The position numbers and the translations under genes were made by a program. The notes under the pieces are model-generated. The model did not search any database and was not told the DNA's origin. It saw only the letters and a list, made by a program, of their open reading frames with translations. From an uncultured Gammaproteobacteria bacterium (GTDB lineage Bacteria > Patescibacteriota > Microgenomatia > Levybacterales > UBA12049), in NCBI GenBank assembly GCA_964408485.1, contig CAYOZJ010000006.1, positions 1 through 54,104 on the forward strand: 54,104 bases of DNA, read 5' to 3'. Below are positions 30,463 through 41,130 of this stretch, one piece after another (positions within the stretch are counted from its first letter, which is position 1; the number at the start of each line of letters is the position of its first letter).

Positions 30463-32211
30463 ATGTCAACAAATACAAAACCAGTCCACGTCAAGCTTAA
30501 TCAATGGTTTGCAACGGCAATTTGTGGTAATGACATTTTAAGCTCAACATTCTATGTCTCGGGTATTTCTATAGCCTTTGCAGGAGTATTTGCACCACTT
30601 GTCCTTCTTTTTATTGGTGTTGTACTTTTTCTTTATAAGTCAGTTTACACAGAAGTTGTTGAAGCGCTTCCAACGAATGGCGGTGCATATAACTGCCTTC
30701 TTAATGCATCGTCTAAGACATTTGCGTCCGTTGCAGGGACTATGACGCTTCTTTCGTATGTTGCAACAGCAGTTATCTCAGGCAAAACAGCGATTGAGTA
30801 TCTTTATTCAGCAATTCAAATTCCCGTTATTCCAGTAACAATCGTCTTACTCCTTGCATTTGCGCTTCTTGTTATTTCCGGTATTAAAGACTCAGCAAAA
30901 GTTGCATTGGGAATTTTTCTATTCCACATTCTTGTTTTGACAGCATTTGTTGGAATGGGTGCATGGAATTTTCTGAGTGGAGGTCAATCGCATTTTATGC
31001 AAAATATTGTAAGTACAAAGGCGCTTATCGCAAGTATTGGTGGTCTTGTACCTGCACTTTTCTTTGGATTTTCAACATCGCTTCTTGGTGTATCAGGATA
31101 TGAGTCCTCTGCTAATTTTGTTGAAGAGCAAGCACCAGGGGTTTTTCGCAAAACGCTTCGCAATATGCTTATTGGCGTTGCTATTTTTAACCCACTCACT
31201 GCATTTGTTGCATTAAATGTTATGCCATTTGATGCAATTATTAAGTCAAAGGACTTTCTGCTTTCCGATGTTGCTCGCATGATGGGTGGAACCATATTTC
31301 AATATATTGTTGTTGCAGATGCATTTCTTGTTTTGGCGGGAGCAGTACTCACCGCATTTGTCGGAGTCAGTGGACTTATCTATCGCATGACAACTGATGG
31401 ATGCTTCCCTAATTTCTTGTCCTATGAAAATAAAAAAGGGTCGTATCCATATATTATTATTTTCTTTTTTCTGTTATGCACATCGATTCTTCTTATTACA
31501 AAAGGGGATCTCCTTTCATTAGCAGGTGTCTATACGATTGCATTCTTGTCTGTTATGAGTTTGTTTGCATTGGGAAATTTAATCATGAGGGAAACTCGTA
31601 CCGAGCTGAAGCGTACTTATCATGCACCGCTTATCTTTGTACTCTTAGCATTTGCAGCAACAGTTGCCGGAGTATTTGGCAATATTCGTATTCAGCCCCA
31701 AAATATTGAATATTTTGCTATTTATTTTGTTCCAACCATTACAGCGGTATTTATTTTTCTTCGTCTTGATTGGTTTTTACAATTTATACTTCGATTTACA
31801 AAATATCTTCGCAAAATCGATGATATTGTATTGCAGCACTTTGAAGACATTACCAGTGGAACATTTGTTGTATTTATTCGCCATATTGATAGACTCTATC
31901 CAATTCTAGAATATATCAATAATAATGAGACAGGAAGAAATATTATTCTTATCCACTGTAGTAATGAAAAAGTGCAAGATGATAAGAGTCTTGCAGAACT
32001 GCGAGAAGTTATCCCAACTTTACAAAAGGCAGGAGCATTTGCTCATTTTAATATCCGAGTTTTGCATAGATCAGAGCAGTTTGGCCCCGAGCTTATTGAT
32101 AAAGTTTCAAAGGAGCTAAAAATTAGAAAGAATAGAATTCTTATCGGATCAATTCACGAAGAACATCCGTTTGATTATGCAGAATTAGGCGGTGTTAGGA
32201 TTATCTTCTAA
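30463..32211 (+). CDS. APC family amino acid permease
   Basis: ATAICGNDILSS.FY, EVVEALP.NGGAYN, GYESSANFVEE; C-terminal soluble domain. Confidence 0.9.
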   Translation: MSTNTKPVHVKLNQWFATAICGNDILSSTFYVSGISIAFAGVFAPLVLLFIGVVLFLYKSVYTEVVEALPTNGGAYNCLLNASSKTFASVAGTMTLLSYVATAVISGKTAIEYLYSAIQIPVIPVTIVLLLAFALLVISGIKDSAKVALGIFLFHILVLTAFVGMGAWNFLSGGQSHFMQNIVSTKALIASIGGLVPALFFGFSTSLLGVSGYESSANFVEEQAPGVFRKTLRNMLIGVAIFNPLTAFVALNVMPFDAIIKSKDFLLSDVARMMGGTIFQYIVVADAFLVLAGAVLTAFVGVSGLIYRMTTDGCFPNFLSYENKKGSYPYIIIFFFLLCTSILLITKGDLLSLAGVYTIAFLSVMSLFALGNLIMRETRTELKRTYHAPLIFVLLAFAATVAGVFGNIRIQPQNIEYFAIYFVPTITAVFIFLRLDWFLQFILRFTKYLRKIDDIVLQHFEDITSGTFVVFIRHIDRLYPILEYINNNETGRNIILIHCSNEKVQDDKSLAELREVIPTLQKAGAFAHFNIRVLHRSEQFGPELIDKVSKELKIRKNRILIGSIHEEHPFDYAELGGVRIIF

Positions 32212-32799
32212 GTTTTCTTTTGCGATGTCTTCATCTCGTGCACGCTTGAGTGCTGTTGCCCACCACATAAATTGTTTCATAATCACAGTAACTCGTTCAT
32301 TATAATGGCCAGCAAGTAAATTACCTTGTTGGTCGAGCGTTTTTAAAACATTCGTCATATGAATTGCGGCCTGCATAGGTACCATCTGGAGTTCAATACT
32401 GATAAGTCTCAATTGTTCGACTGCCCGCATAGCTCCACTCGTACCGGTTGCATAGCCAACAAAAAGCACAGGTTTTTTATTCCATTCCTCATAAACATAA
32501 TCAAGCGCATTCTTAAGAACTGCTGTTGGTCCATGATTATATTCTGCGGTGATAACAATAAATCCATCCTTCTCGCCAATTTTTTTTGCCCATTTTTCAG
32601 CACCCGGTGTTTGGTATCCGTTTTCTAGACTATCGGGTGAGTTGTCTTCTTCAAAAAATGGAAGAGGGTAATCACGAAGATCCAAAAGCTCAAATTCTGC
32701 CTCTTTGTAGTTGTTGAGTTGTCCCATAAGCCACTTGGCAACACGCTCACCTCGTCGTACTTTTCGTATACTCCCCAAAATAACACCAACCTTTACCAT
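32185..32799 (-). CDS. NADPH-dependent FMN reductase
   Basis: ILGSIRKVR, DLRDYPLP, AEYNHG..AVLKNALD...EWNKKP; TATAAT 6 nt before ATG 32799. Confidence 0.93.
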   Translation of the reverse strand: MVKVGVILGSIRKVRRGERVAKWLMGQLNNYKEAEFELLDLRDYPLPFFEEDNSPDSLENGYQTPGAEKWAKKIGEKDGFIVITAEYNHGPTAVLKNALDYVYEEWNKKPVLFVGYATGTSGAMRAVEQLRLISIELQMVPMQAAIHMTNVLKTLDQQGNLLAGHYNERVTVIMKQFMWWATALKRARDEDIAKENLEDNPNTA

Positions 32800-32817: not shown

Positions 32818-32952
32818 AAGGGGTCCTGCCACTCGTTCATTCTGCAGATGCTCGCAGGGTGGTTCCAGTAGGTACCAATTGCTGCGCGTCAGCGGGTCCC
32901 TCCTGGCTTGTCAAGCCAGCAGCCTCCTTCGCCCCGCTCGGTCCGGCCCCTT
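32818..32952. repeat. GC-rich structured element, copy A (intergenic)
   Basis: Terminal AAGGGGtCC/GGCCCCTT; core hairpin shared with 40396-40495; extra hairpin CTGGCTT-gtc-AAGCCAG. Confidence 0.8.
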
Positions 32953-32987
32953 CACTTGCATCATCCCTTTTTAGCTTTAAGTTATTA

Positions 32988-33015
32988 GAAATTTGAAATT
33001 AAAAATTAAAAATTG
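32988..33015. repeat. heptamer tandem repeat (AAATT family)
   Basis: GAAATTT GAAATTA AAAATTA AAAATTG. Confidence 0.55.
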
Positions 33016-33033
33016 TTATGCTATACTCTGCCT

Positions 33034-33498
33034 ATGGCATTTTGTGTTTTTTGTGAAATTGCAGAAAATAAATTACCTCACCATACAGTTGCGGAAGATA
33101 AAGACTTCCTAGCAATTTTGGGTATTTTTCCTAATACAAAAGGAATGACTGTTGTTTTTCCTAAAAAACATTATGGGAGTTATGTTTTTGATTTGGATGA
33201 CACCACACTTAAAAATCTCATTCTTTTTGCGAGAAAAGTTGCAAAGCAAATTGATGCAACAATACCGACAGTTATGCGAACAGGGATGGTTATTGAAGGA
33301 TTTGGAGTAGATCATGCGCATGTTAAGCTGTTTCCCCTTCATGGAAAAAAGACAAAAGAGTGGAAGCCTATTGAATCAAGTAAAGATGAATTTTACGAAG
33401 AATATCCCGGATATATTTCCTCTCATGATAGTAAGCGTGCAGATAATTCGGAATTAGCAGATCTTGCGAAGAAACTGCGCAAACATACAGAAAAATAA
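33034..33498 (+). CDS. HIT family protein (HxHxK variant)
   Basis: CVFCEI, GMTVVFPKKH, GVDHAHVKLFP. Confidence 0.88.
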   Translation: MAFCVFCEIAENKLPHHTVAEDKDFLAILGIFPNTKGMTVVFPKKHYGSYVFDLDDTTLKNLILFARKVAKQIDATIPTVMRTGMVIEGFGVDHAHVKLFPLHGKKTKEWKPIESSKDEFYEEYPGYISSHDSKRADNSELADLAKKLRKHTEK

Positions 33499-33499
33499 T

Positions 33500-34066
33500 A
33501 TGTTTGCATTTATTTTGACCGAAGTCATCGTTCTTCTAATCATTCTCTTTCTTTTTCTTATTTTGTCTGCTGTTTGGCCACCAGATAGTCCTTGGGCGCC
33601 GTGGTGGCAAATGCCAGAAGACGTAATACAGCGAATGTGTCGGATAGCAAAAATTTCAAAAAAAGATATTATCTATGATCTAGGATGCGGGACTGGGAAA
33701 GCGCTTATTTATGCAAGTAAGGAGTATAGTGCAAAAGGAGTCGGTATAGAAATAGATCCAATACGTTTTCTTCTTGCAAAGTGGAATGTGCATCGTTTTG
33801 GTCAAGGCAATACTATTTCTCTTTTTAAAAAGAACTTTTTTTCAATAGATATTTCTAAAGCAACAATTATTTTTGTCTATCTCGTTCCAGCGGCGCTAAA
33901 AAGATTAACGCCAAAATTCTTAAAAGAATTACAACCTGGGACAAAATTTTTAAGTTACGTCTATCCGATGCCAGAAGAATTATTTAAAGGAAAACTACAG
34001 CTAGTTGCTCATGATAAAGAGTTACGAATTTATTACTACCAATTATTTGCGAAGGCGAAGAAGTAA
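33500..34066 (+). CDS. membrane-anchored class I SAM-dependent methyltransferase
   Basis: TM, APW, IYDLGCGTG, GIEIDP, ELQPGT. Confidence 0.88.
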   Translation: MFAFILTEVIVLLIILFLFLILSAVWPPDSPWAPWWQMPEDVIQRMCRIAKISKKDIIYDLGCGTGKALIYASKEYSAKGVGIEIDPIRFLLAKWNVHRFGQGNTISLFKKNFFSIDISKATIIFVYLVPAALKRLTPKFLKELQPGTKFLSYVYPMPEELFKGKLQLVAHDKELRIYYYQLFAKAKK

Positions 34067-35074
34067 CCACCGTACTGTATCTGCAACTTTATATCCTTGA
34101 TAAAGCAGAGGATTAAGCACTAAATCATAACTCCCAACAAATTCAATGAGTTGTGGTCCATATCCTGATTTAAATCGATGAAATCCGTACCATGGGTCTT
34201 TTGTATCTGGATCTGGACCGAGTGATCCCCACATATCAAATACTGTTAGTTCTTGTTTTTTTCCAAACTGAATAACATCCCACATCATAAGATTACTACT
34301 CATTGATTCTCTGTTTTTACTGCTTGATGCACCGTACGGATAGTACAATGCGTTATGAAAAGTAAAAACAATCCATGTTGTTAGTGGTTGTTTCTCGTAA
34401 TACGCAACGAATAAATGTGCCTGTAAGTGGTCATTGCTTAACGCTTTACGCTTTACGCTTGACGCTTTCAATGTTTCCCACATAAGTTGGTGATATTTTT
34501 TTGTGTGAGCAAAAAAACCTTGGCGATTTGTTGTTTCTTCTGTGAGCTTAAGATATTCAGCAAATGCTGTTTCAGATATCTCTTCCTTTACAATAACCTT
34601 ATGCTTTTGTGCAACACGGATATTGTAGCGGGTTTTCTGAGACATATTTTTTAAAAGCTCGTCTTCTGATTTTGTTAAGTCGAGTTGAAATGTGTATTTG
34701 GTAAAAAGTGGATGGGCAGATGGAATAAGGTTATGCAAAGAAAGTTGCGCATGGGAGGAAGGAGTGTTGACAACATTTGGTTCGAGCTGGATAAAAATAC
34801 AATTATTTTGCTTGCCAATATTCTTCAACTCTTCAACAATTTCTTTAGAGGGCAATAGAGATTTTGGAAAATATCCAATAGTCCATGCTGTATGAGGAAT
34901 CGCATGAATGGTTAGTTGGATGACTTGAGTTAGCTTATTGTCTTCAAAAAATCCTTTTCGAATTACTTTGACCCCTGTTTTTTTACGAAACTCTCCCCAT
35001 TCATAGCTTTGTAATGGATGAGTAGCTAACTGATTAAATTCGTTTCTATTTTTTTCTGTAATATCGTGCCACAT
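34043..35074 (-). CDS. FemABX family peptidoglycan bridge aminoacyltransferase
   Basis: HPLQSYEWGEF, LDLTKSEDELL.NM.QKTRYNIR.A, YYPYGAS, FDMWG, GFHRFKSG. Confidence 0.92.
   Translation of the reverse strand: MWHDITEKNRNEFNQLATHPLQSYEWGEFRKKTGVKVIRKGFFEDNKLTQVIQLTIHAIPHTAWTIGYFPKSLLPSKEIVEELKNIGKQNNCIFIQLEPNVVNTPSSHAQLSLHNLIPSAHPLFTKYTFQLDLTKSEDELLKNMSQKTRYNIRVAQKHKVIVKEEISETAFAEYLKLTEETTNRQGFFAHTKKYHQLMWETLKASSVKRKALSNDHLQAHLFVAYYEKQPLTTWIVFTFHNALYYPYGASSSKNRESMSSNLMMWDVIQFGKKQELTVFDMWGSLGPDPDTKDPWYGFHRFKSGYGPQLIEFVGSYDLVLNPLLYQGYKVADTVRWLLLRLRK
34436..34470. repeat. in-frame heptamer tandem repeat within FemAB gene
   Basis: GCTTAAC GCTTTAC GCTTTAC GCTTGAC GCTTTCA, encoding LKASSVKRKALS on the minus strand. 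Confidence 0.7.
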
Positions 35075-35091
35075 ATAATTAGTTTACAATT

Positions 35092-35148
35092 TTCAGTTGT
35101 CTGTTGTCAGTTTGAAAAATGTAAAATGTAAAACGAAAACTGTCACAG
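35092..35148. repeat. heptamer-repeat element between uvrD and femAB
   Basis: CAGTTGT CTGTTGT CAGTTTG then AAAATGT AAAATGT AAAACG AAAACTG. Confidence 0.55.
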
Positions 35149-36978
35149 ATAATCTGGATAGTCTTCAGTACTATCTTTGAATTCAGAAGATTTAATCTGA
35201 GATTTTACAACTGTGTCGGGAAGTTCAAGAAGAAATCTAGAAATAATATTACTGGTTCTACTCCCAAAATAGAGACGCTTTCTAGTGTAAGAAAGAAATA
35301 ATTTATTCTTTGCACGGGTCATGCCAACATAACAAAGACGTCGTTCTTCTTCTAACTCATTTTTGTCCATAAGTGCTCTGCTATGTGGGAATAGTCCTTC
35401 TTCCATACCTATCATAAAAACAACCGGAAATTCGAGTCCCTTTGCGCTATGAAGTGTCATAAGGGTAACAGCATTTTTTTGTTCCCCAATTTGTTTGTCT
35501 GGCATGTACTCTTGTTCAACCAGCGCGACATTTTCTAAGAAATTTACTAAGTCAGGAAAATTAATAGCAACAGAGCGAAGTTCTTTAATATTTTCTAAGC
35601 GTTGTCTGTCTTCTTCGTCTTCTTCATCAAGTAAGTCCAGATATCCTACAGCGCGAAGACAATTATCCAATAAATCTATTGTCACAAAATCTTTTTTTGC
35701 TAACCATTCTTCTTGGAATGTTTGGAATTTAAGAAAGCGTCCTTTTCCTAATTTTTCAACTCTCTTCAGAGATACGCTATCTTGAGGATTTAAAAATAAT
35801 CGTAAATATGAAAGAACATCTTTAATTTCTTTTCTTTCGTAGAATCTGGTTCCACCAACAAGAGCGTACGGGATTCCATGATGGAGGAGTACTTCTTCAA
35901 CAACGCGGGATTGTGCATTTGTCCGGTACAAAATGGCAATATCCGATAAATGATCTTTATGATAATTTTGAATAAATTCGACAATTCGTAAAATTTCTTC
36001 TTGCTCGTTTCTCATTTCTGTAACACTAATTTGTTCGCCAATTCCATTCTGTGTCCAAAGGGTAAGAACCGGGTGAGTTGTATTATGTTTTATAACATGA
36101 GATGCAGCGTCGAGAATAGATTGTGTCGAGCGGTAATTTTGTGACAATTCAAACACCTGTACATTTCTAAAGTCTGTTTTAAATCGCGAAAGATTTTGGA
36201 AATCAGCGCCACGCCAGGAATAAATACTTTGAGAAAAATCTCCCACAACGCAGACATTTTGTCGATCACCTGCTAAAAGCTTTGTGAGCTTATACTGCAC
36301 CTTATTTGTATCCTGATATTCATCAATAAGAAGATACTGAAATTGTTCTTGATATTTTTTAAGAATATCTGGCCTATTCTTAAAAAGCGTTACCACTTCC
36401 AAAAGAAGATCATCAAAGTCAAATGCATTATTTGATTTAAGTAATTTTTGATATGCGCTATACACAATAGCAACAACTTGTTGAAAGCTCCCTCTTGCAA
36501 GATCGCTATATTGTCCCGGGGTAATCATTTCATTCTTCGCTTGAGAGATCATTTCTAAAAGCGCACGAGGTTTGTATTCTTTAATAGATAAACGCAGAAG
36601 TTCCATAACTTGCTTGAGGGCATCTTCTTGGTCAGAGGTATCGTAAATGACAAAATTACTATCCATACCCACATTTCGTGCCTCTTTACGCAGAATTTTT
36701 GCGCAGAGAGAATGAAATGTTGCAATAGTTGGAAGGTTGGTTACATGAAGAAGCTTTTGCATACGTTCTTTCATTTCGTTCGCTGCTTTATTGGTAAACG
36801 TAACCATAAGGATATTTTGAGCATCAATATGCTTTTGAGATAAAAGATACAGTACCCGGTAGGTCAGGACTCGCGTTTTCCCGGAGCCTGCACCTGCCAA
36901 GATAATAATCGGTCCCTCTGTTGCAACGACAGCTTTAGCCTGCTCTTTATTTAAATCCTTGAGAAGATCTAGTTCCAT
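35143..36978 (-). CDS. pcrA: UvrD/PcrA SF1 DNA helicase
   Basis: AGAGSGKT, TFTNKAA, DEYQDTN, VGDFSQSIYSWRGA, NYRST, LYRTNAQSR, TLHSAKGLEF, EERRLCYVGMTRA. Confidence 0.95.
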   Translation of the reverse strand: MELDLLKDLNKEQAKAVVATEGPIIILAGAGSGKTRVLTYRVLYLLSQKHIDAQNILMVTFTNKAANEMKERMQKLLHVTNLPTIATFHSLCAKILRKEARNVGMDSNFVIYDTSDQEDALKQVMELLRLSIKEYKPRALLEMISQAKNEMITPGQYSDLARGSFQQVVAIVYSAYQKLLKSNNAFDFDDLLLEVVTLFKNRPDILKKYQEQFQYLLIDEYQDTNKVQYKLTKLLAGDRQNVCVVGDFSQSIYSWRGADFQNLSRFKTDFRNVQVFELSQNYRSTQSILDAASHVIKHNTTHPVLTLWTQNGIGEQISVTEMRNEQEEILRIVEFIQNYHKDHLSDIAILYRTNAQSRVVEEVLLHHGIPYALVGGTRFYERKEIKDVLSYLRLFLNPQDSVSLKRVEKLGKGRFLKFQTFQEEWLAKKDFVTIDLLDNCLRAVGYLDLLDEEDEEDRQRLENIKELRSVAINFPDLVNFLENVALVEQEYMPDKQIGEQKNAVTLMTLHSAKGLEFPVVFMIGMEEGLFPHSRALMDKNELEEERRLCYVGMTRAKNKLFLSYTRKRLYFGSRTSNIISRFLLELPDTVVKSQIKSSEFKDSTEDYPDYL

Positions 36979-37087
36979 GGGTATAATGAGAAGTATACCC
37001 TTTGCAATTGAAATTGCTACGGGTATAACTTTTTCTAAACTGATTTTTCCACAATCAGTAAGAAAAAGTACACATACATTTTATCAT

Positions 37088-37750
37088 ATGCGCTCACCCA
37101 AAATTATCGCAAATTGGAAATCAAACAAGACAGTAAAAGAAACAAAAGAATGGTTTGCAGAAGCGCATTCGCTGTTATTATCCACCCCCTACACAGCAGA
37201 GGTTATTATTTGTCCACCCTTTCCGCTCCTTCCTCTTTGTCAGTCACTAATACGCGAATATAATTTAGCATGGAAATTAGGTGCACAAGATGTGTCTGCT
37301 TTTTCTGAAGGGAGACATACAGGGGAAGTAAGTGCAAGACTCTTAAAAGATTTTGTCCATTACGTCCTCATTGGTCATTCAGAAAGAAGACGGCAATTAG
37401 GTGAGTCCGATGAGTTTCTTTCCGAAAAAGTAAAGCAAGCACAAGCAAGCCTTATTGAACCATTTTACTTTGCACAGACTGTTCATACGCCAATTCCGTT
37501 GAGTGTTACTACTGTTGTCTATGAGCCGCCAGGAGCAATAAGTCCCGCGCCTCCAGAAAGAGCGGAAGACGTAGAAAAAGCAGCAACGATTCTGAGGCAG
37601 CAAAAACATATTCTGTCTGTTTTATATGGTGGAAATGTAACGCCAAGTAATATTGACTCATTCATGAGCTTGTCACATATTGATGGGATTATTGCAGGAA
37701 ATGCAAGTTTGGATCCGCAGCTTTTTACCAAGTTAGTAACATATGCGTAA
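37088..37750 (+). CDS. tpiA: triosephosphate isomerase (short, divergent)
   Basis: ANWKSN, GAQDVS, GRHTGEVSA, IGHSERR, YEP, LYGG, ASL. Confidence 0.88.
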   Translation: MRSPKIIANWKSNKTVKETKEWFAEAHSLLLSTPYTAEVIICPPFPLLPLCQSLIREYNLAWKLGAQDVSAFSEGRHTGEVSARLLKDFVHYVLIGHSERRRQLGESDEFLSEKVKQAQASLIEPFYFAQTVHTPIPLSVTTVVYEPPGAISPAPPERAEDVEKAATILRQQKHILSVLYGGNVTPSNIDSFMSLSHIDGIIAGNASLDPQLFTKLVTYA

Positions 37751-38861
37751 ATTTATTCCTATTTTTATTCTGGGAGTTATTTTAGTGGTTGTGGGTATAA
37801 AACTCTCGTCACTATTTGGTGATTTTATTCCTCGTGCTGCGCATGTTGTTTTTCATCCTGGTGCAATGCTTAAGCAAACAGACAATAAAACCAATGTGCT
37901 TTTGTTAGGTATTGGTGGGGGAAGTCATGACGGCCCAAATCTAACAGATACAATTATCTTTGCCTCTATTGATTGGAAAAAAGATACCGTAACGCTTGTT
38001 TCTATCCCTCGGGATCTTTGGGTGCCAGACTTGAATAGTTATGTTAAAAAAATCAATGAAGCATATGCAAGTGGTGGGTTGAGTTTGGCAGAAAAATCTG
38101 TAACGCAAGTCACTGGGCAGCCAATTCATTATGGTATTCGGCTTGATTTTCAAGGCTTTGTTGATGCCATAGATCAGATTGGTGGAGTTGATGTAACCGT
38201 CATGCGTACTCTTGATGATTATAATTATCCAATAAGCGGTAAAGAAGATGAGGCATGTAATCATACTCCAGAGGAAATACAAACATTTACAGCAACTACA
38301 TCGGCTGAAACAGACAATTTTGATTTTTTTGCATGCCGTTACAAACATCTTCATTTTGATCCAGGAAATCAGCACATGGATGGAGAGACAGCGTTGGAAT
38401 TTGTTAGGTCTCGCCACGCTGTTGGAATAGAAGGGTCAGACTTTGCTCGCTCTAGTAGGCAGCAGCTTGTTATTGAGTCAGTACGAAATAAATTAATTTC
38501 CTCAGCGCTTTTTAATCCGGGGAAAATATTAGGATTGTATGACATTTTGAAAAAAAGTATCGATACCGACATGACAGACACGGATCTAGGACTTTTCTTA
38601 GATAAACTTCCACTTCTCAAAACAGCAAAAGTGATTACTGCAAATGTTGATGTAGGAGATTATACAACAGGGCGCGCAGGACTTTTAGTAAATACCCCGG
38701 TAAGTAGTGAGTTTGATTTTTCAGCAGCGCTTATGCCACGAATGGGCAATGGTAACTTTTCAGAGATACAACAGTATGTAGGTTGTGAAATTGCATCTGG
38801 AAATTGTACCGTAGCAAAAGTTTCTGGAATTCCAACAGCAACCCCAAAAGCTAAAAAGTAG
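37743..38861 (+). CDS. LCP (LytR-CpsA-Psr) family protein
   Basis: LTDTII, SIPRDL, KINEAY, IGGVDV, ALEFVRSRH, SDFARS.RQQ. Confidence 0.93.
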   Translation: MRKFIPIFILGVILVVVGIKLSSLFGDFIPRAAHVVFHPGAMLKQTDNKTNVLLLGIGGGSHDGPNLTDTIIFASIDWKKDTVTLVSIPRDLWVPDLNSYVKKINEAYASGGLSLAEKSVTQVTGQPIHYGIRLDFQGFVDAIDQIGGVDVTVMRTLDDYNYPISGKEDEACNHTPEEIQTFTATTSAETDNFDFFACRYKHLHFDPGNQHMDGETALEFVRSRHAVGIEGSDFARSSRQQLVIESVRNKLISSALFNPGKILGLYDILKKSIDTDMTDTDLGLFLDKLPLLKTAKVITANVDVGDYTTGRAGLLVNTPVSSEFDFSAALMPRMGNGNFSEIQQYVGCEIASGNCTVAKVSGIPTATPKAKK

Positions 38862-38862
38862 A

Positions 38863-41130
38863 TTAATTTATTCTATAAATTTTTACGCTTCCTGATGAGT
38901 AGATAATCTTCCCAAGCAGTTTAAATTTATTTTCATTGATTTCAGGATACTTGCTTCTTTCCAAATCACCAACATAGACATATTGCACATGATACTTCTG
39001 TAAAAGTTTTCTTGTCTGTTCGATAGTTTGTGAATTGTACAGATTTTTTACATCTTCAATTCGTCCCGGGACAATATCATATGTTCCTCGCCAGAGCCAT
39101 TCATGTACCATCCATCCGAATACCGTTGGTATTCCTGTATTAGCAGAAATCCTTTCGTAATCTGTATACGAATCGCCTTGTGCTTCAAGCATGACTGGTT
39201 GATTATGAATAGTGTGATTTATCCATTGGATTGCATTGTAATCATCGTTACTTATGTTTTTTAAGTATAACGTGCCATCAAGCCCTTTGTAGTCCTTTAG
39301 ATTATTAAAATAAGACATAACTGCAAAATAGGGATAAATGCTTACTAGCGTAAGCAAGCATATGGCAAATAGCGTATAGCATATAGAAAGAACTCTTTGA
39401 AAAATATTTTTATGTACTGTTTTGAAGTTACTAAAAATTCGAACAAGGGAATATCCGCTGACTAAGGATAAAAGAATAAATGATTGATAGACTAATTTAA
39501 ACATTGTATTTGCGCGAAAATACGTTGTGTAAATATCTTTCAAATAGAAAAACTCTGGAATAAGTATTAACAGAAATCCAGTAATTCCCAATCCTGCAAC
39601 AAAGAGATCAACAGTATGTATTTTTTTGTAAACCTTTTTATGCCACAAAAGAAATGCGAGATAGGAAATAAACCAGAAAAAGAAAAAACCATAAAGAATG
39701 CTTAATTGCCATAAGGGACTGTATTGGCAATATCCATGTTCAAAAACCAATGGGCCAATATTGCCAATACGAAGGAGAAAGTCAGGTGCGCAATTTAAGC
39801 CAATCTGAGATGCAAATGGTTTAAAGAAAAAGGAAAATGGTAAGCCAATAATTGCGAACGCCGCAATTATGAGTAGTATGTAGTAAGTAGTATGTAGTAA
39901 GTTTTTTTGCTTGATACTTTCTACTTGATACTTACTACTTGTAGATATATTGGTTTTAACGTTTAGATCTTTAAAGATTATGAGAACAATACTTACCCCA
40001 AGGTAGATTAGTCCGTCCCACGCATTTGTCATATACATAATTCCTGCAAGGCTACCAAGTCCTGCAGATGCAAAAAGAATGTTACGAAGTTTTTTAAATT
40101 GTGTTGTTGCAATAATAAGAAGTAACGCAATCATGAGTAAAACCGATGGAATGTCTAAGACGTGACCGTGTAAGTCGGATACAACAAATGAATAAATAGG
40201 GAATTCGTGTATGGTGTGGTAAATAAATCGTGTTGCGTTAGGATACCAATACTGATTGGGAAATGTTGCAGGAGAAAACGTGAGTTGTGTTGGGGGTACC
40301 GGATTTTCATTTTGATACGGGATAAAAAATGTGTATATGGTATGCAGATTGCCGCCAAAGGTTAAAATATATGCTGTTATGAGACCAGCTATAACGGGTC
40401 CTGTCAGGAATTCCCTCCCAATCATGCTCGCAGAACTAGGTCCAGTGGGTCCTAACTGCTGCGCGTGTCTGGGAAGCCCTTCCTTCCTGCCACCCAAATT
40501 TATCTTAAGTAAATAAATGAGATTTCCTCCTAAAGAAAATCCTTGAGTAAATGTAAAAGAAAAAAGTGTTGCAAGCATAAGATTAAATGTTATAGTGCTT
40601 GGTAGAAATGAGAGCTTGGTTACAACAGCAGTCATAATATGACCAAAATAATAATAGTTAATAGAAAGAGGTGTCATCCACATATCTTTTGCTGGAAAAT
40701 AATTTGTTCGAAGAAGCGAATTTAAGAATCCATAGTCCATAAATTTTTCCAAACCATGGATATCAGGTTGAAAACTTTTAATAAAAGCCCAAAAGAGGAT
40801 GCCAACAAAAAAAAGAAGCTCCTCAAATAAAAATACTTTCCATTTGTTTCTGAAAGTATTCAGTGTATTATTTCTGACAGCATATACTATTGAAGCACTA
40901 CCTAACAGAGCGGTAATGATAAGTAAAGAAAGAGTAGAAAAGGGAAGGATGTGAAGTGTTCCTAACACATATGCACTGTAGCTAACAGTAATAAGGCCAA
41001 GAATTTTTGAAAAGATATATCCTTTGTCAAAAAAGACTGAAAAGATTTTTGATGCAACAGGTAGAGCAAGTATCCCTAGGATAAAGAAAATGCTCCACCA
41101 TGGTACAACAACGGAAATGAGTTCAATCAT
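38863..41130 (-). CDS. DUF2298 (Chlor_Arch_YYY) multi-TM GT-C-like protein
   Basis: EKFMDYGF, INYYYFG, IHEFP.YSF...DLHGH, NAWD, RANTMFK..YQ, GW..HEWLWR. Confidence 0.88.
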   Translation of the reverse strand: MIELISVVVPWWSIFFILGILALPVASKIFSVFFDKGYIFSKILGLITVSYSAYVLGTLHILPFSTLSLLIITALLGSASIVYAVRNNTLNTFRNKWKVFLFEELLFFVGILFWAFIKSFQPDIHGLEKFMDYGFLNSLLRTNYFPAKDMWMTPLSINYYYFGHIMTAVVTKLSFLPSTITFNLMLATLFSFTFTQGFSLGGNLIYLLKINLGGRKEGLPRHAQQLGPTGPSSASMIGREFLTGPVIAGLITAYILTFGGNLHTIYTFFIPYQNENPVPPTQLTFSPATFPNQYWYPNATRFIYHTIHEFPIYSFVVSDLHGHVLDIPSVLLMIALLLIIATTQFKKLRNILFASAGLGSLAGIMYMTNAWDGLIYLGVSIVLIIFKDLNVKTNISTSSKYQVESIKQKNLLHTTYYILLIIAAFAIIGLPFSFFFKPFASQIGLNCAPDFLLRIGNIGPLVFEHGYCQYSPLWQLSILYGFFFFWFISYLAFLLWHKKVYKKIHTVDLFVAGLGITGFLLILIPEFFYLKDIYTTYFRANTMFKLVYQSFILLSLVSGYSLVRIFSNFKTVHKNIFQRVLSICYTLFAICLLTLVSIYPYFAVMSYFNNLKDYKGLDGTLYLKNISNDDYNAIQWINHTIHNQPVMLEAQGDSYTDYERISANTGIPTVFGWMVHEWLWRGTYDIVPGRIEDVKNLYNSQTIEQTRKLLQKYHVQYVYVGDLERSKYPEINENKFKLLGKIIYSSGSVKIYRIN
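39872..39941. repeat. in-frame heptamer-repeat palindrome inside DUF2298 gene
   Basis: GTAGTAT GTAGTAA GTAGTAT GTAGTAA ... TACTTTC TACTTGA TACTTAC TAC; same family as 23450-23523. Confidence 0.8.
40396..40495. repeat. GC-rich structured element, copy B, in-frame inside DUF2298 gene
   Basis: 34/43 nt core identity to copy A plus shared GGGTCCTGYCA end; encodes GGRKEGLPRHAQQLGPTGPSSASMIGREFLTGP. Confidence 0.82.

Follow-up and report, generated by a model that had tools for sequence, protein, structure and literature searches.

The window, a stretch of 54,104 nucleotides that makes up contig C6 of a Patescibacteria genome, contains two GC-rich islands. An earlier note, made from the sequence alone, had proposed that they are copies (A and B) of a single hairpin element, copy A lying between two genes and copy B in frame within a gene for a membrane protein. 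Inspection of the sequence and of the GC profile located both islands at the positions given, with a GC content of 0.68 for copy A (32850-32949) and 0.57 for copy B (40400-40499), in surroundings of about 0.3-0.4. Identity between the two cores was 34 of 43 aligned positions, exactly as had been claimed, and two compensatory pair changes in the apical stem (G-C to A-T and T-A to G-C), with the same loop and the same T-T mismatch, were reproduced from the sequence. When the whole genome was scanned with a covariance model built from four genomic copies (R1, described below), A and B were each detected with an E value of about 1e-22. The likeness of the two copies is far beyond chance.

Copy A (32820-32967, plus strand) is composite and lies in the spacer between a gene for an NADPH-dependent flavin mononucleotide (FMN) reductase on its left (32185-32799, minus strand; Pfam FMN_red) and a HIT-family gene on its right (33013-33498, plus strand), Pfam assignments that agree with the neighbours proposed earlier. 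Its 5' part (32820-32900, plus strand) contains the foot GGGGTCCTGCC, a decayed second stem, the conserved core hairpin and the apical stem TGGT-T-CC[AGTA]GG-T-ACCA, and was matched at 32818-32918 with E values of 1.1e-21 (R1) and 2.6e-9 (R2, a larger model). The lower stem of this copy has decayed. A different repeat of 49 nt, referred to here as element 2 (about 32901-32949, plus strand; core GCTTGTCAAGC..AGCAGCCTCC..GTCCGGCCC), is nested in the pyrimidine-rich internal loop of copy A, with a junction that is ambiguous by about 2 nt. The remainder, CTTCACTTGCATCATCCC (32950-32967, plus strand), is the partner of the 5' foot; we read it as the likely 3' end of copy A from its resemblance, by eye, to the 3' end of the copy on contig C17 (CCCTTCACTCACGTCACCCC), while MAFFT did not align it there. 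The island described earlier is real, and the bounds then given to copy A were too short, since its own 3' end lies beyond the nested repeat. As listed, the open reading frame (ORF) of the FMN reductase begins at a GTG at 32832, within the element, and the Pfam match begins at residue 13 of this ORF; the start is more likely an ATG near 32799, which would fit the beginning of the Pfam match. Two sigma-70-like sites were detected at 32993-33027, downstream of copy A, and a promoter and terminator scan found no promoter-like or terminator-like sites on the element at this copy.

Copy B (40396-40495, plus strand) is a complete rod hairpin with the foot GGGTCCTGTC/GCCACCC, the stems CAGGAA/TTCCTG, TCCCA/TGGGA and CATGC/GCGTG, and the apical stem TAGG-T-CC[AGTG]GG-T-CCTA; it was matched at 40393-40497 (E = 1.0e-22 with R1 and 8.3e-15 with R2). 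The copy is antisense to its host, a gene for a 755-residue DUF2298 (YYY-domain) membrane protein (38863-41130, minus strand). As claimed earlier, the frame of this gene stays open: the ORF is uninterrupted, and its Pfam DUF2298 match has an E value of 3.3e-97. Residues 212-246 or so of the protein, about 33 of them extra (LGGRKEGLPRHAQQLGPTGPSSASMIGREFLTGPV), are the translated reverse complement of copy B. The earlier note had named orthologues lacking this peptide as a test of insertion, and the insert was missing in 19 of 19 aligned homologues and in 4 of 4 same-genus orthologues, these being the ones retrieved in one piece. The hydropathy profile agreed with the proposed hydrophilic character of the 33 residues (values down to -1.2), with hydrophobic stretches on either side. 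In the AlphaFold model, residues 214-238 had a predicted local distance difference test (pLDDT) score below 50 and lay between helices 178-213 and 234-269, a low score being expected here regardless, since the alignment has no relatives over the insert. Same-genus orthologues are just 69-79% identical in DNA, and the borders of copy B therefore could not be fixed to the base; for copy A no empty site was definable, the FMN-reductase and HIT genes not being adjacent in relatives. In one same-genus genome (G003), the DUF2298 gene is split over two contigs (C4:1-1978, locus L039, and C24:48449-50261, locus L044) with the break at the loop that holds copy B, and a repeat at this loop may have broken the assembly.

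The genome to which the window belongs (G000) is 1.09 Mb long in 19 contigs, with 38% GC and 98% completeness, and contains one tmRNA and 43 tRNAs; the closest relatives of the window DUF2298 protein carry Levybacteria or Patescibacteria names. BLAST within this genome revealed two more copies, at C4:11149 and C17:3305. Model R1 was built from these and copies A and B, and a scan of the genome with it returned those four copies and nothing else. A second model (R2), built from 74 copies, returned six, namely the four close copies and two divergent ones (C5:60786-60872 and, on the minus strand, C7:9077-9162), which have the same foot and another core. The C7 copy is in frame within C7:8819-9748 (plus strand), whose product looks by eye like a TatD-family hydrolase, and a TatD gene of another genus (L074) likewise carries a copy. 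When R1 was applied to 100 relatives and the genome itself, the family was present in 21 of the 101 genomes with 1 to 18 copies each: 17 of 60 other genomes of the same family, 3 of 38 of a second family and 0 of 2 of a third, with no match in any of the five same-genus genomes. With R2, 7 of 151 genomes sampled across the phylum had a match, other classes included. Copies collected elsewhere formed a first set of 74 and a second set of 85; the non-redundant copies numbered 146. The further copies that the earlier note had expected thus exist, both in this genome and beyond it.

An exact core 20-mer was found in 69 stretches among contigs representing one genome per species, mostly labelled Levy-, Roizman- or Curtissbacteria or Patescibacteria group; one was labelled Saccharimonadales and some carried unverified labels such as uncultured Gammaproteobacteria or Chlamydiae. 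Viral contigs gave no matches to two element patterns. As far as searched, the family is restricted to Patescibacteria and occurs mainly in Levy-, Roizman- and Curtissbacteria, in genomes with 31-45% GC. Rfam gave no matches at gathering thresholds over the whole window, and at E values up to 1 six loci with both repeat families gave just two tRNAs and one chance-level match elsewhere (E = 0.38). No papers on such elements in Patescibacteria, or the candidate phyla radiation, surfaced in literature searches that covered sources other than subscription journals. With no described family matching in Rfam or in those searches, the possible novelty suggested earlier stands.

The element is a single GC-rich, imperfectly palindromic rod hairpin of about 85-120 nt with the ends GGGGTCCTG and CACCCCT. 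From 5' to 3', the first half of the aligned copies runs through the foot GGGGUCCUGyC, a variable stem, UU(U)CC, CUCCCGy, CAGUGCUCG and a variable tip; the second half contains CUGCGCGCUG, UCGGGAGCCCU with UC(C), the partner of the variable stem and the 3' foot GyCACCCCU. The foot is constant and asymmetric, with 5' GGGGU pairing with ACCCC 3' beside a CCU bulge and a pyrimidine-pyrimidine mismatch. Above it lie a second stem whose pairs covary freely, an internal loop that is conserved and rich in pyrimidines, a pair of conserved stems, with a nearly invariant T·G mismatch in one of them, and the variable tip, of which there are several unrelated types.

This five-helix nested rod was evaluated on the 74 copies of the first set. 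Paired cells amounted to 84.8%, compared with 69.8% in shuffles, and the covariation score was 0.340, compared with 0.121; none of 500 shuffles reached either value, and these counts, like the p-values given below, are overstated, as the copies are related (on the same contig or in related genomes) and not independent. Sliding the partners of the helices left 39-52% paired, and changes on both sides were seen at 20 of 28 pairs. Helices 1 and 2 are absent from the model behind the alignment; for helix 2, a gap-free test based on anchors gave 76% paired compared with 51% in shuffles (maximum 60% in 1000 shuffles). The mismatch beside the foot, scored in 60 copies, was U·C in 34 and C·U in 24 and never C·C or U·U, and the terminal GGGGU/ACCCC pairing was changed to CGGGU/ACCCG in 13 copies. 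The nested rod is maintained by compensatory changes, and the significant covariation by which the earlier note had proposed to judge the family is present. The first drawing by RNAalifold, a double pseudoknot like that of hepatitis delta virus (HDV) in which GGGGUCC pairs with GGGAGCCCU, was set aside because the terminal pairing covaries and the nested rod accounts for all helices. Identities resembling a ribozyme, signal recognition particle (SRP) RNA, 6S RNA or Y RNA were dropped, neither repeat having an Rfam match.

Residence inside genes is not peculiar to copy B. Counting only open frames of at least 200 residues that reach 60 nt or more beyond the copy on each side, 36 of the 74 copies in the first set, and 85 of the 146 non-redundant copies (58%), lie in frame; of these 85, 58 have the orientation of the host gene and 27 the opposite one. 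One phase dominated in each orientation (21/24 and 9/12 in the first set), in agreement with the finding that elements mostly have only two or three stop-free frames out of six. At least four frames of the element are used, so that there is no single conserved peptide. Being GC-rich and open in two or three frames, the element can, judging from its sequence, be read through as a short loop rich in proline, serine, alanine and glycine. Known protein families accounted for 19 of the 20 hosts scanned, including IF-2 (twice), DnaX, topoisomerase I, GluRS, YchF, RadA and transketolase (twice), as well as the carbamoyl-phosphate synthase large chain (CPSase), TatD and several glycosyltransferases. 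A frame of about 1000 residues with three to five tandem copies was also observed in two genomes (L159:3179-5132 and L133:4394-5480).

We examined the orientation of the copies relative to GC skew. Skew of the flanks was positive on the GGGGTCCTG strand in 67 of the 74 copies of the first set (binomial p = 2e-13), with a mean skew at third codon positions (GC3 skew) of +0.146 on that strand. GC3 skew was positive at 36 of 41 loci where the genes run on the same strand as the element, at 24 of 26 where they run on the opposite strand and at 7 of 7 mixed loci. The second set gave similar values (flank skew positive in 76/85, GC3 skew in 81/85), also with one copy counted per locus (68/77 and 73/77; 21/23 at loci with genes on the opposite strand). 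Copies on the same contig were nearly always on one strand, as in 7 of 7 on G034:C2 and 5 of 5 on G041:C3, and the 58:27 ratio of orientations relative to host genes is about that expected from leading-strand gene bias. Since the skew is positive whichever way the genes run, the orientation of the element tracks replication direction and not transcription. By the usual rule, the G-rich strand has the leading-strand sequence and hence serves as the lagging-strand template. Insertion sequences (ISs) of the IS200/IS605 group are biased to the lagging-strand template and move as single strands at the fork, as described in PMC5027513.

The earlier note had left it open whether the element acts as RNA or as single-stranded DNA. 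One U·G wobble is retained (61 of 74 copies and 76 of 84) although the pairs next to it covary, and we had initially taken it as a mark of folding of a plus-strand RNA. This argument was withdrawn, as outside the wobble G·U pairs did not exceed A·C mismatches (45 compared with 77, and 39 compared with 42) and both strands folded equally well. These two results, together with the presence of both orientations in transcripts, favour a DNA-level element, that is one acting as single-stranded DNA, over an RNA. A family of structured non-coding RNA genes (small RNAs, ribozymes or cis-regulators), with the genic copies as by-products, would explain the conserved loop and the covarying stems, which are the usual signature of a functional RNA, as well as the retained wobble and the folding z-scores of -3.1 to -4.1 obtained with RNA parameters. 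It is nevertheless highly improbable, given the lack of an Rfam match, the copies facing both ways in genes, an orientation that follows replication, the G·U counts and strand folding just given, and the failure to find promoter-like or terminator-like sites at copy A. Of the mobile RNA or single-stranded DNA family proposed earlier, the structural selection and the in-frame insertion are borne out and the RNA side is disfavoured, with mobility resting on the indirect evidence considered next.

In the first set, all six host families seen at least twice share the site, orientation and frame of the element across different genera, and the 85 in-frame copies comprise 52 that form 20 groups with a common site and 33 singletons. 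Homologous hosts with insertions at differing positions also exist. Copies at orthologous sites had a mean identity of 0.70, compared with 0.68 for random pairs between genomes and 0.74 within genomes, where individual pairs reach 0.93-0.97. A FastTree phylogeny of 120 DUF2298 homologues, computed with the loop removed, placed three element-bearing sequences in one clade with one element-free sequence, a fifth element-bearing sequence elsewhere, and the window protein alone among 22 element-free sequences, which requires at least three changes. The same loop, after the FS.G.N motif, is lengthened in six other homologues (P0098, P0024, P0063, P0050, P0062 and P0116) by unrelated low-complexity inserts, which by eye look like translations of other repeats. 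The inter-helix loop occupied by copy B seems to receive insertions generally. Copies are frequently decayed, truncated or nested: a remnant 5' foot lies 11-20 nt upstream of 6 of the 74 copies, two of which also have a remnant 3' foot downstream, some remnant feet belong by eye to another subfamily, and in five copies of relatives other repeats are nested in the same internal loop as in copy A. We conclude that insertion sites are both inherited and reused. Mobility is suggested by the distribution of the family, the nesting and the near-identical copies.

Old sites shared between genera may also indicate that the element serves the host, as a replication-oriented DNA signal for single-strand priming, recombination or chromosome handling that was inherited vertically and kept by selection. 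Strict orientation relative to replication, strong conservation of unpaired bases and of one mismatch across genera, same-site copies in orthologues of different genera (6/6 families; 20 groups with 52 copies) and persistence of a GC-rich sequence in genomes of 31-45% GC are in accord with such a role. However, the element was not found in 80 of the 101 genomes, among them all five of the same genus, nor in 144 of the 151 sampled across the phylum, and copy number ranges from 1 to 18. The interiors of essential genes would be an odd location for a signal, copies are often decayed, truncated or nested, and the DUF2298 tree needs at least three gains or losses. A host signal is therefore quite improbable.

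We searched for an enzyme that could mobilise the element. That no transposase is visible, as stated earlier, is true of the window; elsewhere in the genome there is one Y1 transposase-like gene (G000:C3:115805-116464, 219 residues), which resembles IS200 transposases or the REP-associated tyrosine transposases (RAYTs; REP, repetitive extragenic palindromic sequence). The same 16-nt hairpin motif flanks it on both sides; this motif is confined to these two places in the genome and differs from the element. With its motif, the gene forms an IS200-like unit that is present once in the genome and has no relation to the element studied. Conserved hairpin bulges and mismatches are the type of feature read by Y1 enzymes, and the element could be a passenger of the type of REPINs or of palindrome-associated transposable elements (PATEs), a Y1 (HUH) transposase (a RAYT or an IS200/IS605 TnpA) cutting and pasting its folded top strand on the lagging-strand template. 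The absence of long terminal inverted repeats and of target duplications would fit such a passenger, as would the abundance of Y1_Tnp genes in the clade (49 of the 101 genomes, including the one studied here) and the orientation bias, which is of the type reported for IS200/IS605 in PMC5027513. We consider it unlikely, however. Y1 genes, the co-occurring HUH or RAYT nucleases to which the earlier note had looked, do not track the element (12 of 20 element-bearing relatives compared with 36 of 80 element-free genomes), and the two genomes with most copies, G015 (18 copies, 94% complete) and G034 (10-13 copies, 100% complete in 5 contigs), yielded no Y1 gene. In addition, the Y1 gene of this genome is flanked by its own motif, no conserved tetranucleotide lies beside the insertions, and the element has one long hairpin in place of two subterminal ones. 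Phage_integrase genes were present in 5 of 5 element-rich genomes, with two or three Xer-like genes in each, and are uninformative as they are universal. Clustering of ORFs around 149 loci gave no recurrent neighbour gene, because the peptide encoded by the element and the shared host genes merged the clusters.

Taken together, these results are best explained by a selfish, non-autonomous family of palindromic DNA elements, similar to Rickettsia palindromic elements (RPEs) and to intragenic REPs, that is copied at the replication fork by way of single-stranded DNA. We assign this reading a probability of roughly 70%. The existence of the family, its structure and covariation, its residence in frame, the shared sites, the orientation bias and the nesting are observed; mobility and the single-stranded DNA intermediate are what we infer from them. 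The elements would be copied within genomes and occasionally between lineages, and copies would persist just where they are harmless, in intergenic spacers (copy A) or in frame in tolerant surface loops of proteins (copy B). Because orientation follows replication and not transcription, the copying step would most likely use single-stranded DNA at the fork, as in IS200/IS605 transposition.

Several observations weigh against this interpretation. No enzyme has emerged that accompanies the element: besides the lack of co-occurrence with Y1 genes, searches of five element-rich genomes found RVT_1 (reverse transcriptase), the TnpB zinc ribbon and IS110 in none of them, and rve in two of the five. 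Neither a target-site duplication nor a conserved target motif was seen beside the copies, whose left flanks vary, the former in line with what the earlier note had reported from its two copies. That 52 of 85 in-frame copies share sites fits an old, vertically conserved insertion and repeated insertion equally. The four close copies in this genome are about 72% alike and at most 81%, which indicates that activity here is not recent, and four DNA sequencing runs of one study span A and B unchanged, with no joint that skips either, in contigs, which drop rare variants. With DNA parameters the folding z-scores are just -0.7 to -1.5, which does not clearly set the stability of the hairpins above that of shuffles. 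The placement of the G-rich strand on the lagging-strand template is assumed for these organisms from the usual rule, and the relatedness of the copies, noted above for the shuffles, reduces the weight of the statistics.

A more far-reaching version of the same idea is tentative and, on balance, doubtful. Patescibacterial hairpin DNA elements would spread without a transposase of their own, copied at the fork by a housekeeping enzyme or by a novel enzyme that reads the foot, and would land repeatedly in single-stranded loops, including loops formed by elements already in place and the same permissive loops in essential genes. If so, fork-copied hairpins that need no transposase would continually supply core proteins throughout the lineage, IF-2, DnaX and topoisomerase I among them, with new surface loops. 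Identification of the foot-reading enzyme could bring to light a novel mechanism of single-stranded DNA movement. Although recognisable mobile elements are very scarce in the minimal genomes of Patescibacteria, this family and several other families of GC-rich repeats in the genome studied occupy both spacers and the interior of essential genes. Such inserts enlarge and distort the alignments and family models of patescibacterial proteins and may break assemblies; they are also natural markers of insertion-tolerant loops in conserved proteins.

Other repeats were observed in the same genome. Element 2 belongs to a second GC-rich family with no Rfam match, consisting of the palindrome GCTTGTCAAGC, then AGCAGCCTCC, a variable stretch and GTCCGGCCC. 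Copies lie at C1:23470-23525, C1:20700-20750, C1:49090-49140, C3:119805-119860 (L004) and C17:7820-7870 and in the window at 32901-32949, and the nested stretch matches C3:119802-119855 (83%, E = 6e-9), C1:23446-23525 and C1:49092-49139. One copy of element 2 is directly upstream of a tRNA-Leu gene. A further GC-rich element of about 110 nt closely follows six tRNA genes (Val, Ser, Ile, Val, Glu and Arg), at C1:21598-21712, C2:50926-51035, C2:84026-84134, C3:88851-88974, C4:100034-100146 and C8:40787-40926; it has a module in common with element 2, and at C2:84026-84134 its final part nearly duplicates the 3' end of the tRNA-Ile gene. It looks like a tiny element integrated at the 3' ends of tRNA genes. 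In all, about 149 islands in this genome reach 60% GC or more over 60 nt, tRNAs and glycine-rich genes among them. Many of the others are strings of short GC hairpins (CCCGACTCGGGA, CGGTTCGGCGAACCG, GCCGCTTCGGGGAAGC and GTACCCCAAGGGTAC) that recur in varied order, for example at C4:17685-17757, C4:25470-25551, C13:22735-22802 and C10:22208-22267.

We compared the element with known systems. Classical miniature inverted-repeat transposable elements have terminal inverted repeats of 15-30 bp and target-site duplications; here only the 5-bp GGGGT/ACCCC is constant and no flanking direct repeat is present. The attC sites of integrons are imperfect palindromes in which structure is conserved over sequence; they act in the form of a folded single strand, and the direction of replication affects them. 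The element resembles them in its similar length, conserved structure, extrahelical bases and variable terminal part; unlike them, it flanks no gene cassettes and lies inside genes. The core sites of attC (R''/R', RYYYAAC/GTTRRRY) stand at cassette boundaries, and neither GTTRRRY nor RYYYAAC occurs at the ends of the 74 aligned copies. In the five element-rich genomes, only two or three Xer-like tyrosine recombinases were found per genome.

With IS200/IS605 elements, as described in PMC5027513, the element shares the lack of terminal inverted repeats and target duplications, the dependence on a folded strand and an orientation bias of the lagging-template type (67/74 and 76/85 copies, with the G-rich strand assumed to be the lagging-strand template). 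Those elements, in contrast, have two subterminal hairpins, a fixed target tetra- or pentanucleotide on the 5' side and TnpA, whereas here there is a single rod with variable left flanks and no motif was seen. Like the REP/REPIN-RAYT systems, the family consists of hairpin repeats that are long-lived, mostly vertical in inheritance and long as hairpins; some REPs are intragenic, as in Opitutus terrae and R. conorii, and CGTC REPs occur without a dedicated transposase, according to PMC3733652. REPs are 20-40 bp long, carry a GTAG or CGTC tag at the end and are mostly extragenic, whereas the element is an asymmetric rod of about 100 nt without such a tag, with the ends GGGGTCCTG/CACCCCT and 58% of copies intragenic. 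A cognate RAYT flanked by the same repeat is likewise lacking, the Y1 gene of this genome having a different 16-nt motif.

The closest parallel is with RPEs, which are about 150 bp long, lie in frame in unrelated functional housekeeping genes in about half of their copies and have no known transposase (PMC10969869 and PMC3733652). Both are short palindromic repeats of small, AT-rich genomes, about half in frame, that add a short peptide loop and lack a known transposase; as repeated palindromes in frame in genes, 85 of 146 copies qualify here, with 19 of 20 hosts in known families. The differences are the phylum, the length (about 100 nt compared with about 150 bp) and the use of at least four reading frames, and replication-linked orientation is absent from the facts on RPEs taken from PMC10969869 and PMC3733652. 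This likeness is one of behaviour, and the hosts are Patescibacteria, so it does not amount to membership. If our reading is correct, selfish DNA inside genes, known from Rickettsia, would exist in a second, unrelated group with reduced genomes, there with a much clearer conservation of structure and with a replication-linked polarity that hints at a mechanism. The earlier interpretation was largely right, and the family is best filed as one of the kind of RPEs and intragenic REPs in a new phylum.

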